DNA of 23,906 bases from an uncultured Nitrospiraceae bacterium (GTDB taxonomy: Bacteria > Nitrospirota > Thermodesulfovibrionia > Thermodesulfovibrionales > Dissulfurispiraceae), in the NCBI GenBank assembly GCA_947085205.1, contig CAMTVO010000064.1, positions 1 through 23,906 of the forward strand, written 5' to 3'. Position 1 is the stretch's first letter; each line of letters opens with the position of its first letter. This document shows positions 3,001-12,000 of the stretch, piece after piece. A program made the position numbers.

Positions 3001-6000
3001 AATTTTATTGTCAGTCCTGCGATGGAAGTCTTTCCTGTTCCGCCCTTTCCTGCAAAGGCTATCGTAAATCCCATTTATTCAAACCTCCTTACAATGTCTA
3101 TCAGCTCATCCATTCTATTTATTATAAAATCAGCGCCCTTTAATAAGTCCAGAGGCCTGTATCCATAAGTCACTGCAACAGTTTTGATTCCTGCTGCCTT
3201 TCCTGCCTCGATGTCAAAATTGCTGTCACCAACAATAACAGCATCTTCTGTCTTTATATTAAGTTTTGAAAGGACATGAAGAATCGGGATTGGCGAAGGC
3301 TTTCTCTCTGGAGTTGTATCGCTCCCGACAACCAAATTAAGGTATTTCAATAGTCCGAGGTCATCCAGTACCCTTGATGATAAAGCCTCTCTCTTATTCG
3401 AGATTACAGCCTTCTTATACCCATCTAATTTCTCCAATGTCTCCCTGACCATGGGATAAACAGTGGTATTATCAATTAGATGAGAAGAGTAATGCTCAAG
3501 AAATCTTTCAACGAGAATGTCTTTATTAATATTACTTCTGACTTCCGACTCCTGACTTTTGACTATTTTTTCCATAAGCCTCGTGATTCCTTCTCCGACA
3601 AGGCTTATCGTCTCTTGAATTGTTACAGGTTTTACGCCGTAAGGCTCGATGGCATAATTAATGGCATTGGCGATATCGACGCTCGAATCTATGAGCGTCC
3701 CGTCAAGGTCGAACATGACAAGTTCTATCGGCATTTAATAATGTAATGGAAAAGGCTCAAAAAGCTCAATATTTCCCTTGACTTTGATTTATGCCTTGTT
3801 TTATCTTTCGTATCGAAATTCACTTTATTAGGAGCGTTTATGGGCAACATAAAAATCGGCGTAATCGGCGGCTCTGGATTGGACGACCCAAGGCTGATGA
3901 AGGGCGCAAAGGGAAAGAAGGTAAAGACACCTTACGGCAGTCCATCGTCGCCTCTGACTATCGGAAAGATAAACGGAGTAGATGTAGCAATCCTCGCCCG
4001 CCACGGCAAAGACCACTCAATCTATCCAACAGGGGTCAATTTCAGGGCAAATATATATGCCTTGCAAAAAGAGGGCTGCACCCATATCCTCGCCACAACA
4101 GCAGTCGGCTCTTTGAGAGAAAAGATAATGCCCGGGGACATTGTATTTGTTGACCAGTTTATAGACTTTACAAAGCACAGGCCGCTTACATTCCATGACG
4201 AAAAGGTAATTCATACGCCAATGAGCGAGCCGTTCTGCAATGACCTGCGCTCGCTTGTCATTTCATCAGCAAAGGAATTAAAACTCAGGCACCATACAAA
4301 AGGCACGGTAATTACCATAGAAGGGCCGCGATTCTCCACAAAGGCAGAATCTCATATGTTCAGGGCATGGGGCGCTGATGTTATAAATATGTCAACAGTT
4401 CCTGAAGTAATACTCGCAAGAGAGGCAGGAATCTGTTACCAGAGCATAGCAATGTCAACGGATTACGACTGCTGGAAAGAAGGCGAAGAGCCTGTTACAT
4501 GGGAGATGATACTCGAAATAATGTCTAAAAATGCCGATAATGTAAAAAAGCTGCTTATAAAAACCATTCCAAAGATTAAAAACACAAAGTGCAACTGCAA
4601 ATGAAAGGAGATAAGCAATGCCGATTAAATCAAAAATAAGAACTATACCGGACTATCCCAAGAAGGGCATCATGTTCAGGGACATAACCACACTTATTAA
4701 AGATCCTGTAGGCTTCAGGCTCGTAATAGATAATTTCACCCAAAGATATATCAAAGGCGACATTGATTTCGATGTAATCGTAGGAATCGAATCGAGGGGA
4801 TTTATCATAGGCGGAGCGCTCTCCTACACATTAGGAAAGGGCTTTGTCCCTGTAAGAAAAAAAGGCAAGCTCCCTGCAGAAACGATAAGCCACGAATACC
4901 AACTCGAATATGGCACAGATACCGTCGAGATGCACAAGGACGCCATAACAAAAGGCACAAAGGTGATCCTTGTGGATGACCTCCTTGCCACAGGAGGGAC
5001 AGCCCTCGCGGCAGCAGCCCTCGTTGAGAAATTAGGGGGCATCGTCTCTGAAATGGCGTTTATAGTCGATCTGCCGGATGTGGGCGGCGCAAAGAAGCTT
5101 GCAGGCAAGGGATACAAAATATTTGCATTGACGGAATTTGAGGGAGACTAATCTTTTTCTGCTATAATCATTCATGAACCTCTATCTTATCGACGGGAAT
5201 TCCTATTTTTACAGGGCATATCACGCTATAAGGGGGTTAACCAATTCAAAGGGCTTTCCTACCAATGCAATCTACGGCTTTACAAATATGATTCTCAAGA
5301 TAATACGGGAGAAAAAACCTGATGCAGTTGCAATTGCCTTTGATTCTCCCGTTCCTACAGAGAGGCACAGGATATATGAGGAATACAAGGCACAGAGGCC
5401 TGAGACGCCAAATGATTTGGTTATCCAGATTCCACATATAAAAGAAATCATACGCTCATTTAAAATATCTTCGTTTGAGATGCCGGGTTATGAAGCGGAT
5501 GATATTATCTCTACCATTGCAAAAAAGGCTGCATCACAGAATATCGATGTATTCATACTAAGCGGTGACAAAGACATGATGCAGGTTGTAGGTAGTGGGA
5601 TAAAGATTTACGACCCCATGAAGGATATGATAATCGATGAAAATCATGTAAAAGAAAGATTCGGAGTCCCTCCTGAAAGACTCCCTGAGATAATGGCCAT
5701 AACAGGCGATGCAATAGACAATATTCCTGGAGTCAAGGGAATAGGCGAAAAGACGGCAAAGGAGCTTCTTTCAAAGACAGGCAGCCTCGATGAGCTGATC
5801 AAGCATCCTGAAAAAATAGAGAGCGAGAGGATTAGAAAAATGATAGTGGAAAATATAGAAAACATAAAAATCAGCAAGACCCTCGCAACCATCGATACAA
5901 ACATACCTATCGATATAAACCTTCAGGATATGAAAATAAAAGAGCCTGATTGGCCGGCACTGCTTCATATATTCACAGAGTTTGAATTCAAGAGACTTAT

Positions 6001-9000: not shown

Positions 9001-12000
9001 TGCATACATCATTTAACCAGACCGTAACTGCAACAGGAAGATTAAGCAGCAGCGAGCCTAATTTGCAGAACATACCTGTTCGGGGAGAATGGGGAACAAA
9101 AATCAGAGAGGTCTTTATTGCTGCTGAAGGATGCGTCCTTGTCTCTGCAGACTATTCGCAGGTGGAGTTAAGGATACTCGCCCATATGAGCAATGACAGA
9201 GGCCTGATTGATGCCTTTAAAAATGATATTGATGTGCACACAAGGACAGCTTCGGAGCTGTTCGGCATTCCAAAAGAGTCTGTAACAGAAGACATGAGGC
9301 GTATAGCAAAGACAGTGAATTTCGGAGTTGTGTATGGAATAAGCCCCTTTGGCCTGTCAGAGGCGCTTGATATATCACCCAAAGAGGCAGGCAGTTATAT
9401 AAACCGGTATTTTGATAAGCATGGCGGCGTTAAAAACTATATGGAAAATACCATTAAGACAGTGCAAAAGACAGGATATGTCACAACCCTGATGGGCAGA
9501 AAAAGGCCGATCCCCGAGATCAACAGCCATAACTCAAACATCAGGCAACAGGCTGAAAGGCTCGCAATAAACACGCCCATTCAGGGAACTGCCGCTGATC
9601 TGATAAAGATAGCAATGATAAACATCTCGAATAGACTCAAAGAAAAAAATCTCAAGACAAGGATGGTCCTTCAAATCCATGACGAACTTCTGTTTGAAGT
9701 GCCTGAGGATGAGCTTGAAACTGCTAAAAATCTGATTAAATATGATATGGAGAATGCCCTTGCCCTATCAGTGCCATTGAAGGTTGATATCGGGCACGGT
9801 AAAAACTGGGCAGAGGCGCATTGATGTTTAACATTTAAATTTATTTTGTTATATAATTAGCTTAAATCGGCAATTGCTTTAATTGGGGGGGATATGAAAA
9901 AGCAGGAACTCACAGGGAAAAACATCTCTGAGTTAAGGACAATGGCAAAAAAAGCCGGGATAACCGCTAAGAGCAACTGGAAAAAGGAAGACTTCATAAA
10001 AGCGATCTCTAAAGAAAAACCGGCAAAAAAGAAAACCGAAAAAAAAGCAGCTAAACCATCAAAGAAAAAAGCGCCGACTAAAAAAACCGCTGCCAAAAAA
10101 ACCGCCGCAAAGGCAAAACCACAAAAACCGGAAAAGAAGACAAAAAAGAAAATAGAGGTCAAGAAAGCTAAGGCTCCTGCAAAAGCTAAAATCAAAGCCC
10201 CTGTGAAACTTAAAGCAAAAGCACCCTCGAAGGTTAAAGCAAAGACGCCAGAAAAGAAAACTGCAAAAAAAGCAGTAAAAAAAGCAACACCAAAACTGAT
10301 AAAAAAAGAGATTGAAGCGCCCCTTGAGAAATTGACAGTCGCAGAACTCAAAACACTTGCAAAGGAACTCAATATACCTTTAAAGAGTGGTTTTAAAAAG
10401 GCTGATATTATCAAAGCCATAAGCAAAGCAAAAGTCAAAACTGAAAAGCCGGTGCCCAAGAAAGCAAAAAGGGCCGAAGCACCCAAACCAGCGCCGGCAA
10501 AGAAAGAGAAAGAGGCGGTTAAAAAAGTTACAGCCGCTAAAAAACGGGTTGTGATTTCAGAAATATTGCCTAAGGCATTAAAAAAAATTCCAGAGAAGTT
10601 GAAAAAAACGCCAAAAGCTCCTGAAGAACCGGTAAAATACCTTGTACCGGAGGAGATGCCACTGCTTCCGATAGGATACGGGGAGAACAAGCTTGCATCC
10701 ATGCCTGTAACTCCAAGCCAGATATATGTTTATTGGGAGATAACAGAAGATACCATATCCCAATACAGAGGAAGCCTAAATCTAAAAATAGTAAATTCAA
10801 AGACGAATGCCTTTTTCTATCTACCATTATCAGAAAGGATAGGCGAACACTTCATTAATGTCAGACCTGCTGCTGAATACAATGTGGAGATAGGGGTTAT
10901 AAATTATAAGGGAGAATTTGTTAAAATATTGCATGCCCTGCCGGTAGAAACCCCTGTATCAGGCGTGTCGTCGAGGGAAGCTCCCTCCGCAGGAGCAGAA
11001 GAAGCAGCCGAACTGCCGGAAGAATTCTTCGAAACACCGGAATCCATAAGCTCCTATTAAGTCATTATTAATAAGGCAGCGAGAGTGGCGGAACTGGCAG
11101 ACGCGCTGGACTTAGGATCCAGTGGGGCAACCTGTGGGGGTTCAACTCCCCCCTCTCGCATTTTTAGATTTCTCAAATATCTATGACTGCTTTGCCCAGT
11201 AAAAATGCATCTGATTTTCGCCGTGAACCTGTTTCCTCGGCGCACATTTCCTTTTGAGCCAGTATTTGCTCAGATCTACCGCGCAGCCGATGGTCTCTTT
11301 TACCGCCTCTTTGTCGAAATAGATGACCGGCTCAGCGTGGTTATGGGCATCGTAAAAAACCTCTGTGTCGTCTTCGAGCCTTATTCCCTTTCTTTCAGCC
11401 TCGCTCCTTGCCCATGCCGCAACTTTGTGCCCGTACTTTTTCCTGAAGTCTCCCCAACATCCGATGTGCAGTAATTTCAATTTCTTTTTCCTCCTTATAT
11501 TTTGTTTTTACTTTGTTCTATCGCAATAGCCCTAAGAGCATATTGCCTGATAACCGCAGCTATCGAGGTCTGGAGCATGTCTGCCATCTCCTCGAACTTC
11601 TCAAAGTCCGTATTTGTAAACCTCACAAGAACGGCCTTTACCTTCAGCTTTTCTTTGGGCTTTCTCGCTTTTTTTACCTTTTTTCCCATTCTTTAAATAG
11701 TAATTATTAGAAATTAAATATAACTAAAAATAATTTTTAATAGTTCTTAGGAACTAATAGTAACTATTATTAAACCGTTTGTCAATATTTTTTTTATGAA
11801 AATCAATTTTTTTCGGGATGATTCAAGCTACGGTAAAAATAGCTTGCAGACTAATTTCTTTTGCGATATGCTTTTAAGCATATGGATTACTCGATAAAAA
11901 TCGGCGGAGAGGCAGGTCAGGGAATACAGACCATAGGCGACACTCTTGCGCTTGTTTTCTCACGATCTGGCTATCATGTGTTCACGCATCAGGACTATGA

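Follow-up and report, generated by a model that had tools for sequence, protein, structure and literature searches.

Motifs for binding the β-clamp (DnaN) have been described for PolA2, which in Actinobacteria is an accessory enzyme whose exonuclease is inactive and which has the motif in an internal loop (PMC12926913), and for mycobacterial DNA polymerase I (Pol I), where binding of QLSLLDD to DnaN is documented by binding assays and structures (bioRxiv 10.64898/2026.09.19.751633). For M. tuberculosis, the latter source gives a clamp binding of 160 nM for Klenow and 1,100 nM for full-length Pol I (bioRxiv 10.64898/2026.09.19.751633). In the available portions of these two 2026 papers, such motifs are called a first case or described as confined to the Mycobacteriales (bioRxiv 10.64898/2026.09.19.751633; PMC12926913). 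Within the clamp motif, positions 1, 4, and 5 have been named as most important (PMC3919608), and the consensus wants an aliphatic residue at position 2 (bioRxiv 10.64898/2026.09.19.751633).

The locus considered here is part of a window of 23,906 nucleotides (contig CAMTVO010000064.1, assembly GCA_947085205.1), which is the whole stretch of DNA that was analysed, from an uncultured Nitrospiraceae bacterium of the family Dissulfurispiraceae. In this window Pol I is encoded by two genes, a 5'-3' nuclease half and a proofreading polymerase half, which are 1,918 bp apart with an opposite-strand gene between them (Table 1). The ORF coordinates and Pfam domains agree with a preliminary description of this DNA, which had placed the two polA halves and an intervening methyltransferase gene at 5174..9824. 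Each half is present in one copy in the source genome, and the polymerase half is its sole family A polymerase. The 5'-3' nuclease domain is thus carried by a polypeptide separate from the polymerase, which is not the case for canonical PolA1, and a standalone nuclease is found together with a polymerase that has no 5'-3' domain.

Table 1. Features of the split polA locus in the window (positions count from the first nucleotide of the stretch).
Feature	Position	Strand	Basis
5'-3' (flap) nuclease half of Pol I, 305 aa	5174..6091	+	Pfam PF02739, PF01367 (5_3_exonuc_N + 5_3_exonuc)
Nuclease C-terminal tail, aa 287-305 = exonuclease-domain first strand and helix; probable docking piece	6032..6088	+	
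N6/N4 DNA methyltransferase insert, catalytic part, 431 aa	6234..7529	-	Pfam PF01555 (N6_N4_Mtase)
MerR-type helix-turn-helix ORF, 51 aa	7685..7840	-	Pfam MerR/HTH_17
Proofreading polymerase half of Pol I, 604 aa, start MEQFSLF	8010..9824	+	Pfam PF01612, PF00476 (DNA_pol_A_exo1 + DNA_pol_A)
QFSLF, putative β-clamp-binding motif	8016..8030	+	Conservation among split starts
Disordered tether from motif to first exonuclease strand of polymerase half	8031..8114	+	pLDDT, length survey
Extended -10 element TGnTATAAT, 5 nt upstream of nuclease ATG	5160..5168	+	Sequence; function inferred
Extended -10-like element TGnTAAACT, 6 nt upstream of polymerase ATG	7995..8003	+	Function inferred

The polymerase half by itself exceeds the cut-offs of the NCBIfam models PRK05755 and TIGR00593, it is matched by PF00476 with 570 bits, and its structural model matches the Klenow and Bacillus fragment folds (TM about 0.87-0.89). 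The residues of DYSQ.ELR, RR.AK..NFG..YG, and QIHDEL, which we take to be the family A polymerase motifs A, B, and C, were invariant in the family alignment, and the nuclease residues D7, D57, E107, D109, D110, D132, D134, D179, and D182 were likewise invariant in all 48 aligned family copies. The DEDDy 3'-5' exonuclease motifs (FDIEATG, GHNLKYD, and YAAEDA) are intact in the source genome, as had been described, but this does not extend to the entire family: the Exo I pattern was not found in 10 of the 63 family copies that include this region, and in one more copy G replaces D. Judged from these sequences, the proofreading motifs have been lost in some genera of the family.

The fission of polA had been considered to be family-wide in Dissulfurispiraceae, and this is borne out by the presence of a separate polymerase frame (540-730 aa) in 60 of the 64 genomes, out of 68 from the family, where the polymerase half was matched; in the other four the frame is of 905-919 aa. 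For the class outside the family, 174 of the 308 matching genomes were examined and a full-length PolA (827-1121 aa) was observed in 165 of these. Of the remaining nine, six end at contig edges and three have frameshift-like breaks and do not contain the motif discussed below. As Q-x-x-[LMI]-F was also found in none of 66 fused outgroup linkers, the claim that both the fission and the motif are absent from the sister families is upheld. The same split was not seen elsewhere in the phylum among the matches listed for 151 genomes drawn across it, a list that comprised all but 29 match rows and where the exceptional non-family frames were short, stop-interrupted or overlapping and the others were full-length. 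Candidates for a split outside the family that were rejected include the weak-looking family f31 (all four copies read are full-length), genome G431 (its frames overlap and the motif is absent), and genome G334 (its frame runs into a contig edge). No published account of this split was found in the open-access literature.

The arrangement of the two genes varies within the family. Among 48 same-locus nuclease/polymerase pairs, 43 are spaced by -4 to +8 nt, 31 of them by an ATGA overlap, and hence the starts of the polymerase halves are considered to be real. Adjacent pairs without this overlap are spaced by -1, +7 or +8 nt, and five same-locus pairs are interrupted by 1.4-3.3 kb of unrelated genes. 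In six genomes from four genera (G002, G004, G006, G061, G062, and G064), the halves lie well apart on different contigs. The earlier account of the halves as adjacent, interrupted or unlinked is therefore correct for these arrangements, but not for G029, G067, and G003, which had been taken as unlinked and where the genes are at contig ends.

The break falls within the 3'-5' exonuclease domain, some 27 residues further downstream than the start of crystallised Klenow. The first strand and helix of that domain remain on the nuclease gene, and the polymerase gene therefore lacks part of the Klenow fragment that its designation as Klenow-type had implied. The stretch of a fused outgroup protein that is equivalent to this nuclease tail aligns with residues 5-27 of E. 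coli Klenow. Within the tail, R287, Y290, and L299 each reach at least 90% conservation in the family alignment, and the hydrophobic pattern Y-x-x-I-x-D-x-x-x-L-x-x-F/L-L is kept even where the two genes are apart. A gain of R287 after the split was considered and rejected, as R occurs in the adjacent column in close outgroups. Identities of the tail and of the nuclease core are 0.45 and 0.65 in the family and 0.41 and 0.73 in close fused outgroups, and those of the tail groove and of the polymerase domain are 0.57 and 0.68 versus 0.49 and 0.72, respectively; the kin entering both comparisons are not independent. In a complex model of the two halves, the tail was docked on the polymerase (0.87, compared to 0.02 for the best control), where 116 of 157 solved complexes attain the mark for such models, as do two of 215 mismatched pairs. 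At least 92% of the contacts agree between runs and the partner pLDDT is at least 68. This result may stem from likeness, since the contact repeats one that is present in solved Klenow structures, and a pLDDT of about 90 was obtained for the polymerase half modelled without the tail, so that the tail is not necessarily required. The two halves probably re-associate in trans.

The sequence QxxLF opens 58 of the 59 readable split polymerase starts, the remaining one being IPSLF (the start in G038 is unreadable due to a contig end), and its N-terminal presence was thus rightly described as family-wide. In these 59 starts, Q is found at position 1 in 58, and L and F are found at positions 4 and 5, respectively, in all of them. 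Position 2 is occupied by F (13), Y (12), P (7), C (5), H (4), R (4), A (3), V (1), and L (1), and by polar residues or G in the remaining starts, so that an aliphatic residue is not the rule there. L6 and F7 are invariant in an alignment of 51 rows, in which none of the following 25 columns has a majority residue. In the model of the polymerase half, residues 1-6 and 8-31 have pLDDT values below 50, which places the motif in a disordered segment, and in 50 measurable copies the tether is 20-45 residues long. DnaN is encoded in the genome and it keeps DGHRL and MPMRL, presumably the motifs of its peptide pocket. It is very probable, from these sequence features, that the N-terminus of the polymerase half binds to this pocket via QxxLF. 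The conservation pattern shows, at the sequence level, that selection acts on both the nuclease tail and QxxLF.

Two points with regard to this motif need to be revised. In the preliminary description it was regarded as the only terminal motif hit in the proteome; this depends upon the pattern used, and a scan of the 1,869 ORFs of the source genome for Q-x-x-L-F gave six N-terminal and two C-terminal matches (within 14 residues of a terminus) out of 49 occurrences in all, many of them surely by chance. A clamp motif on Pol I is also neither unique nor rare; such motifs are published for PolA2 and mycobacterial Pol I, and QxxLF was observed in the nuclease linker of 21 of 25 full-length PolA proteins from Bacteroidota, for which no published mention was found in the open-access literature. 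As the Bacteroidota motif precedes the first strand, instead of following helix A, it was gained separately from that of the family. When other lineages were considered, only P0024 (start MNTYSLF) among the best 150 representatives resembles the form with the N-terminal motif, and Q-x-x-[LM]-F is present in the linker window of 13 of 118 full-length representatives, some of these matches being clearly structural.

Phylogenetic trees were constructed for the polymerase (83 rows; G038, G033, G151, G324, and G090, which are incomplete, and most outgroups were left out) and for the nuclease (67 rows, without G035, G039, G045, G110, and G324). Each of these trees implies three changes of the split/fused state, and the outgroups formed one branch with SH-aLRT values of 99-100. 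The fission of polA in the family was a single event and the four fused family copies represent two re-fusions. Re-fusion with retention of the motif in the linker had been proposed previously without a tree; it is now supported by the trees and by AU tests (33 rows), although as two events and not four, and the motif is indeed present in all four fused copies (QYALF in two and QQTLF in two), where it sits in an insertion after helix A. Since no intermediate survives, no order is assigned to a gain of the motif after fission versus its first appearance as a loop insertion.

Copies of the methyltransferase that are 87-92% identical are present in five genomes from three other genera, and in G067 the gene also follows the nuclease gene. 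In all five relatives it is a single open frame of 541-542 codons. The window has one base more, and by sequence comparison the MerR-type ORF corresponds to the N-terminus of the methyltransferase, which has fallen out of frame in the source genome. No indel relative to the window was seen at this gene in the contigs of runs X1 and X2. Among the nuclease genes of the family, 46 of 63 have TA[ACT]AAT at 4-8 nt upstream of the start, compared to 25 of 68 outgroup polA genes, and the nuclease transcript is probably leaderless. The -10-like element of the polymerase gene is found at the same spacing in G029, G053, and G067, and this half probably has a leaderless promoter of its own. The polymerase element was not listed by the sigma-70 scan, which requires a -35 and which, with 14 sites versus 12.7 expected, was uninformative.

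We consider it fairly likely that the Pol I of Dissulfurispiraceae is a clamp-tethered enzyme of two subunits, whose halves are re-docked via the nuclease tail. In this proposal, polA broke once in the family ancestor, at a point of the 3'-5' exonuclease domain that follows helix A and precedes the Exo I strand, and two separate proteins would be made, each from its own promoter. The flap nuclease would dock on the polymerase half through the retained strand and helix to give a two-subunit Pol I, and the free N-terminus of the polymerase would place QxxLF, on its tether, in the DnaN peptide pocket. The usual Pol I jobs of primer removal and gap filling may then be done while the enzyme is held on the clamp. 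A less probable, though serious, alternative is that the halves are independent enzymes, with the motif recruiting the polymerase and the nuclease working solo, its tail being a leftover or required for its own stability. The genes that lie well apart in four genera, the good model of the polymerase half by itself, and the common occurrence of solo nucleases beside Pol A proteins without that domain, as stated in the available part of PMC12926913, are all in accordance with independent enzymes. However, the tail pattern is kept even in genomes with separated genes, the groove for the tail is conserved at least as much as in fused outgroups, the tail is docked in the complex model, and re-fusion has occurred twice.

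It is quite improbable that the halves re-associate but that QxxLF is not a clamp motif and serves in self-packing, for another partner, or as an N-terminal signal for translation or degradation. Such translation and degradation signals act at N-terminal starts, and both the placement of the motif at the new start and its non-canonical position 2 would fit with this; but the motif is kept mid-chain in the four fused copies, which have helix A and offer no N-terminus at that place, its conserved positions are exactly Q, L, and F, it is unplaced in the model of the polymerase half, and Pol I linkers from other phyla also carry it. The prevalence of a single overlap, ATGA, could also indicate that the split is only apparent and that programmed frameshifting or slippage joins the adjacent genes into a full-length Pol I. 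This is very improbable in view of the pairs with other spacings, those interrupted by kilobases of other genes, the six genomes with the halves apart, and the window itself, where an opposite-strand gene intervenes. Although most of the genomes are metagenome assemblies and single frameshifts are seen in three outgroup copies, an assembly artefact or a decaying pseudogene is scarcely credible and is refuted by the family survey: the identical break is found in 60 genomes, including single-contig and few-contig assemblies, the catalytic residues are invariant, and a contig of run X1, which is possibly the source of the window DNA, covers the whole stretch without a gap.

The Q of the DnaE clamp motif was absent from all 15 family copies and present in 10 of 14 outgroup copies (one locus was unparsed and one genome had no match). 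That the DnaE and Pol I motifs co-evolved strictly is not supported, as the other four outgroup DnaE proteins also have no Q; the T. yellowstonii DnaE motif, given as SRGLF in a row of a published supplement, likewise has none. It is unlikely that, with a separately expressed polymerase subunit that has a strong clamp motif, a detachable nuclease and the loss of Q from DnaE, the clamp-loaded, proofreading half of Pol I takes a real share in processive lagging-strand synthesis; if true, bacteria would here have converged on the archaeal/eukaryotic scheme of a polymerase plus FEN1 on the clamp.

A two-subunit Pol I of this kind would be a natural one cut within a folded domain, and the split, separated and re-fused forms all occur in one family. 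It makes testable the need for a covalent tie between nuclease and polymerase in the maturation of Okazaki fragments, and also whether a freed nuclease favours clamp use, as the mycobacterial Klenow, in the data available from that source, binds the clamp about seven times tighter than the full enzyme. Compared to canonical Pol I (PolA1; E. coli PolA and the Bacillus fragment), the enzyme of the source genome has the same three orthologous domains, intact catalytic motifs and the Klenow fold, but it consists of two polypeptides, with the break inside the exonuclease domain and a QxxLF tether added. The PolA1-like enzymes with a solo FEN-like nuclease similarly combine a family A polymerase that has no 5'-3' domain with a nuclease encoded by its own gene; in the family, in contrast, both halves go back to a single recent fission and have mostly remained coupled, part of the exonuclease domain is found on the nuclease, and a clamp motif is not reported for those enzymes in the available part of the source (PMC12926913). 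The actinobacterial PolA2/APEX, for which clamp binding has been modelled, is like the family polymerase without a 5'-3' domain and with QxxLF (PMC12926913). The polymerase of the source genome differs in being the only family A enzyme there and in having its motif at the N-terminus, not in an internal loop, and an exonuclease with intact motifs; it scores 354 against NF011539 (cut-off 640), and its closest named relatives are from Nitrospirota, one of them (L316) from Dissulfurispiraceae, and not from Actinobacteria. Mycobacterial Pol I is a single chain with the motif between the exonuclease and polymerase domains (bioRxiv 10.64898/2026.09.19.751633). The T7-like PolA of phage S-SBP1 is likewise a split family A gene whose halves are predicted to re-associate, but it is encoded by a phage and its cut separates the exonuclease domain from the polymerase domain, a boundary at which the family PolA is not broken, and its available description does not report a clamp motif (PMC10201439). 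Lastly, Bacteroidota PolA has the same motif near the N-terminal edge of the exonuclease domain, but in a single chain, and this linker motif together with that of the family points to a wide distribution and several origins of clamp-tethered Pol I.

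Matches to the polymerase half were found in 64 of the 68 Dissulfurispiraceae genomes, 60 as frames of 540–730 aa and four as frames of 905–919 aa, the loci of all 63 relatives having been retrieved. Q-x-x-L-F is present in 58 of the 59 readable split starts, the remaining one reading IPSLF; its third position is S in 48 split starts and its second is variable. The split is real and family-wide, and the N-terminal motif was also correctly regarded as a family trait in the preliminary description. Outside the family, the class has 308 matching genomes, of which 174 were viewed: 165 have full-length frames, six lie at contig edges and three show frameshift-like breaks without the motif, which was found in none of 66 fused outgroup linkers; the absence of split and motif from sister families, claimed earlier, agrees with these counts. 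A genome from another Nitrospirota family (G462, 98% complete) carries a solo 5' nuclease of 290 aa (locus L292) that stops before the exonuclease-domain tail, and no polymerase half was found there with the query used.

The positions and Pfam assignments of the reading frames in the window (see table) likewise bear out the earlier account of polA in two genes with a methyltransferase between them. The polymerase half alone exceeds the NCBIfam Pol I cut-offs. The genome holds one copy of each half, the polymerase half being its sole family A polymerase, together with dnaN and dnaE. The assignment to Dissulfurispiraceae is that of the preliminary description; Nitrospirota are the closest named relatives, and another Dissulfurispiraceae locus (L316) has the same split form. 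The methyltransferase region is a MerR-HTH fusion in five relatives, and because copies 87–92% identical occur across three genera, a mobile gene is suggested; in this genome a one-base shift puts its HTH part out of frame, as it does in contigs of sequencing runs X1 and X2.

Features of the window, and other loci compared (G000, the genome of the window)
Feature	Position or locus	Strand	Remarks
Leaderless-type extended -10 element	5160-5176		directly 5' of nuclease start
Nuclease ORF, 305 aa	5174-6091	+	Pfam: 5'-3' exonuclease
N6/N4 DNA methylase ORF, 431 aa	6234-7529	-	Pfam
Methyltransferase region	6234-7840	-	includes HTH part
Leaderless-type extended -10 element	7995-8012		directly 5' of polymerase start
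Polymerase half, 604 aa	8010-9824	+	N-terminus MEQFSLF; Pfam: 3'-5' exonuclease, family A polymerase
Lys/Ala-rich protein, 388 aa	9894-11060	+	directly 3' of polymerase gene; two Rho_N-like stretches, DUF4912 domain
423-aa protein, by look of sequence presumably a PHP-type nuclease	G000:C8:3859-5130		candidate clamp motif QSMLF at end
Presumed ComF-like protein	G000:C30:21793-22527		candidate clamp motif QMRLF at residue 9
Presumed MutS	G000:C6:21873-24464		candidate clamp motif QMDLF at 821
dnaE loci compared	L176, L178-L206
Bacteroidota-type linker QxxLF loci	L233, L242, L243, L245, L270, L274, L278, L349, L353, L355, L356, L358, L359, L361, L363, L369, L370, L373, L374, L382, L384, L385, others

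Among the 48 gene pairs on one locus, 31 have an ATGA overlap, seven overlap by one base, five are spaced by 7–8 nt and five by 1.4–3.3 kb; in one the nuclease stops early. In G045 (L037) a TGA at about codon 256 of the nuclease gene, either real or an assembly error, removes the tail. The inserts vary, comprising an IS200-like transposase, a different methylase accompanied by an HhH-GPD fragment, and a dehydrogenase together with an unnamed gene; the halves lie well apart on different contigs in six genomes, a further three cases being at contig ends. In G062 (L021:1938-1940) and G061 (L027) the polymerase gene seemingly starts with CTG, which GGAG precedes by 8 nt and which is followed by QYSLF two codons later. 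Of 63 family copies, 46 have an extended -10 element 4–8 nt upstream of the nuclease start, compared with 25 of 68 outgroup genes, and TGnTAAACT, common to three relatives, lies 6 nt upstream of the polymerase ATG in the window. Such elements directly before the starts would fit with leaderless transcripts and with the separated polymerase gene having its own promoter.

The alignment of the polymerase half with E. coli Klenow begins only at Klenow residue 28–29, and the preceding stretch, taken from a fused outgroup protein, matches Klenow residues 5–27. As a stretch of this kind (consensus RGxYxTITDxxxLxxFLG) forms the end of the nuclease gene, these alignments place the polA break inside the proofreading (3'-5' exonuclease) domain. 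The hydrophobic pattern of this tail is retained in genomes with separated genes. Relative to the rest of the protein, tail and groove are conserved no less than in close fused outgroups (identities of 0.45/0.65 vs 0.41/0.73 for the tail and 0.57/0.68 vs 0.49/0.72 for the groove, the copies being related by descent and hence non-independent). A complex model of nuclease residues 272–305 on polymerase residues 28–225 scored 0.87 against 0.02 for the best control, the mark being one that 116 of 157 solved complexes pass, as do 2 of 215 mismatched pairs; the runs share at least 92% of contacts, with partner pLDDT of at least 68. Because the tail contact occurs within solved Klenow structures, this pass may reflect mere likeness to them.

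Outgroups and family were separated in both trees, that of the polymerase (83 rows) and that of the nuclease (67 rows), with SH-aLRT of 99–100, three state changes being needed. The four fused copies form two pairs, one inside genus g10 and the other inside g5. In AU tests (33 rows), a single origin of these copies as one clade was rejected (p 5.6e-9), as was a division of all fused from all split copies (p 1.7e-37). The re-fusion described earlier for four genomes thus stands, but as two events rather than four, and one fission followed by two re-fusions is the simplest account. In the fused G009 copy a Met persists two residues ahead of the motif Q, as a relic start would. The motif may have been gained either ahead of the fission or later.

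A two-subunit Pol I with a clamp tether is the most likely arrangement: the nuclease half is predicted to dock onto the polymerase half via its exonuclease-domain tail, and the polymerase half would be tethered to DnaN through its N-terminal motif. DnaN retains DGHRL and MPMRL, which we take to be parts of its peptide pocket. The tether following the motif comprises 20–45 residues (50 measurable copies), has no consensus and is modelled at pLDDT <50. The motif's positions 1, 4 and 5 matter most according to PMC3919608. The exonuclease motifs are intact in this genome; the Exo I pattern is absent from 10 of 63 family copies, so that proofreading is not a family-wide requirement. The internal DnaE clamp motif lacks its Q in all 15 family copies (GPGLF, GMSLF, others) and has it in 10 of 14 outgroup copies; since other families also lack it, this difference is a lead only.

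Clamp-type motifs were also surveyed across phyla at 160 named loci (138 fused frames), which are the best matches listed from two scans (at most 600 candidates) and not a random sample. Among these matches, the nuclease-exonuclease linker holds Q-x-x-[LM]-F in 21/25 Bacteroidota, 2/6 Chloroflexota, 2/6 Planctomycetota, 1/1 Verrucomicrobiota, 1/1 Balneolota, 2/42 Bacillota, 0/9 Pseudomonadota and 0/7 Thermodesulfobacteriota, and in one of 22 Nitrospirota, a re-fused family copy. The motifs of full-length Bacteroidota PolA (QMDLF, QFDLF, QASLF, others) are placed before the first exonuclease strand; they were not found in the literature searched. Several Clostridia-type PolA (L231, L261, L265, L252) have QLSLF, QITLF or QNMMF about 440–490 residues from the C-terminus, possibly a further clamp-motif site. 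A putative clamp motif is thus common on Pol I, which lowers the novelty of the motif and strengthens the clamp reading.

No account of the family polA split was found in the literature searched. New are the fission within a folded domain, the two re-fusions, the N-terminal putative clamp motif on a Pol I polymerase half and, probably, as modelled, halves complementing in trans. In PMC12926913, PolA1-like enzymes occur with solo nucleases and PolA2 is presented as the first case of a clamp motif on a bacterial family A polymerase; Dissulfurispira thermophila is within its genome set, and its A-family data may bear on novelty. Mycobacterial Pol I is shown to bind DnaN by means of QLSLLDD, a motif detected in Mycobacteriales alone, in bioRxiv 10.64898/2026.09.19.751633. 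T7-like phages show an exo/pol fission (PMC10201439), whereas the break in the family Pol I lies inside the exonuclease domain.
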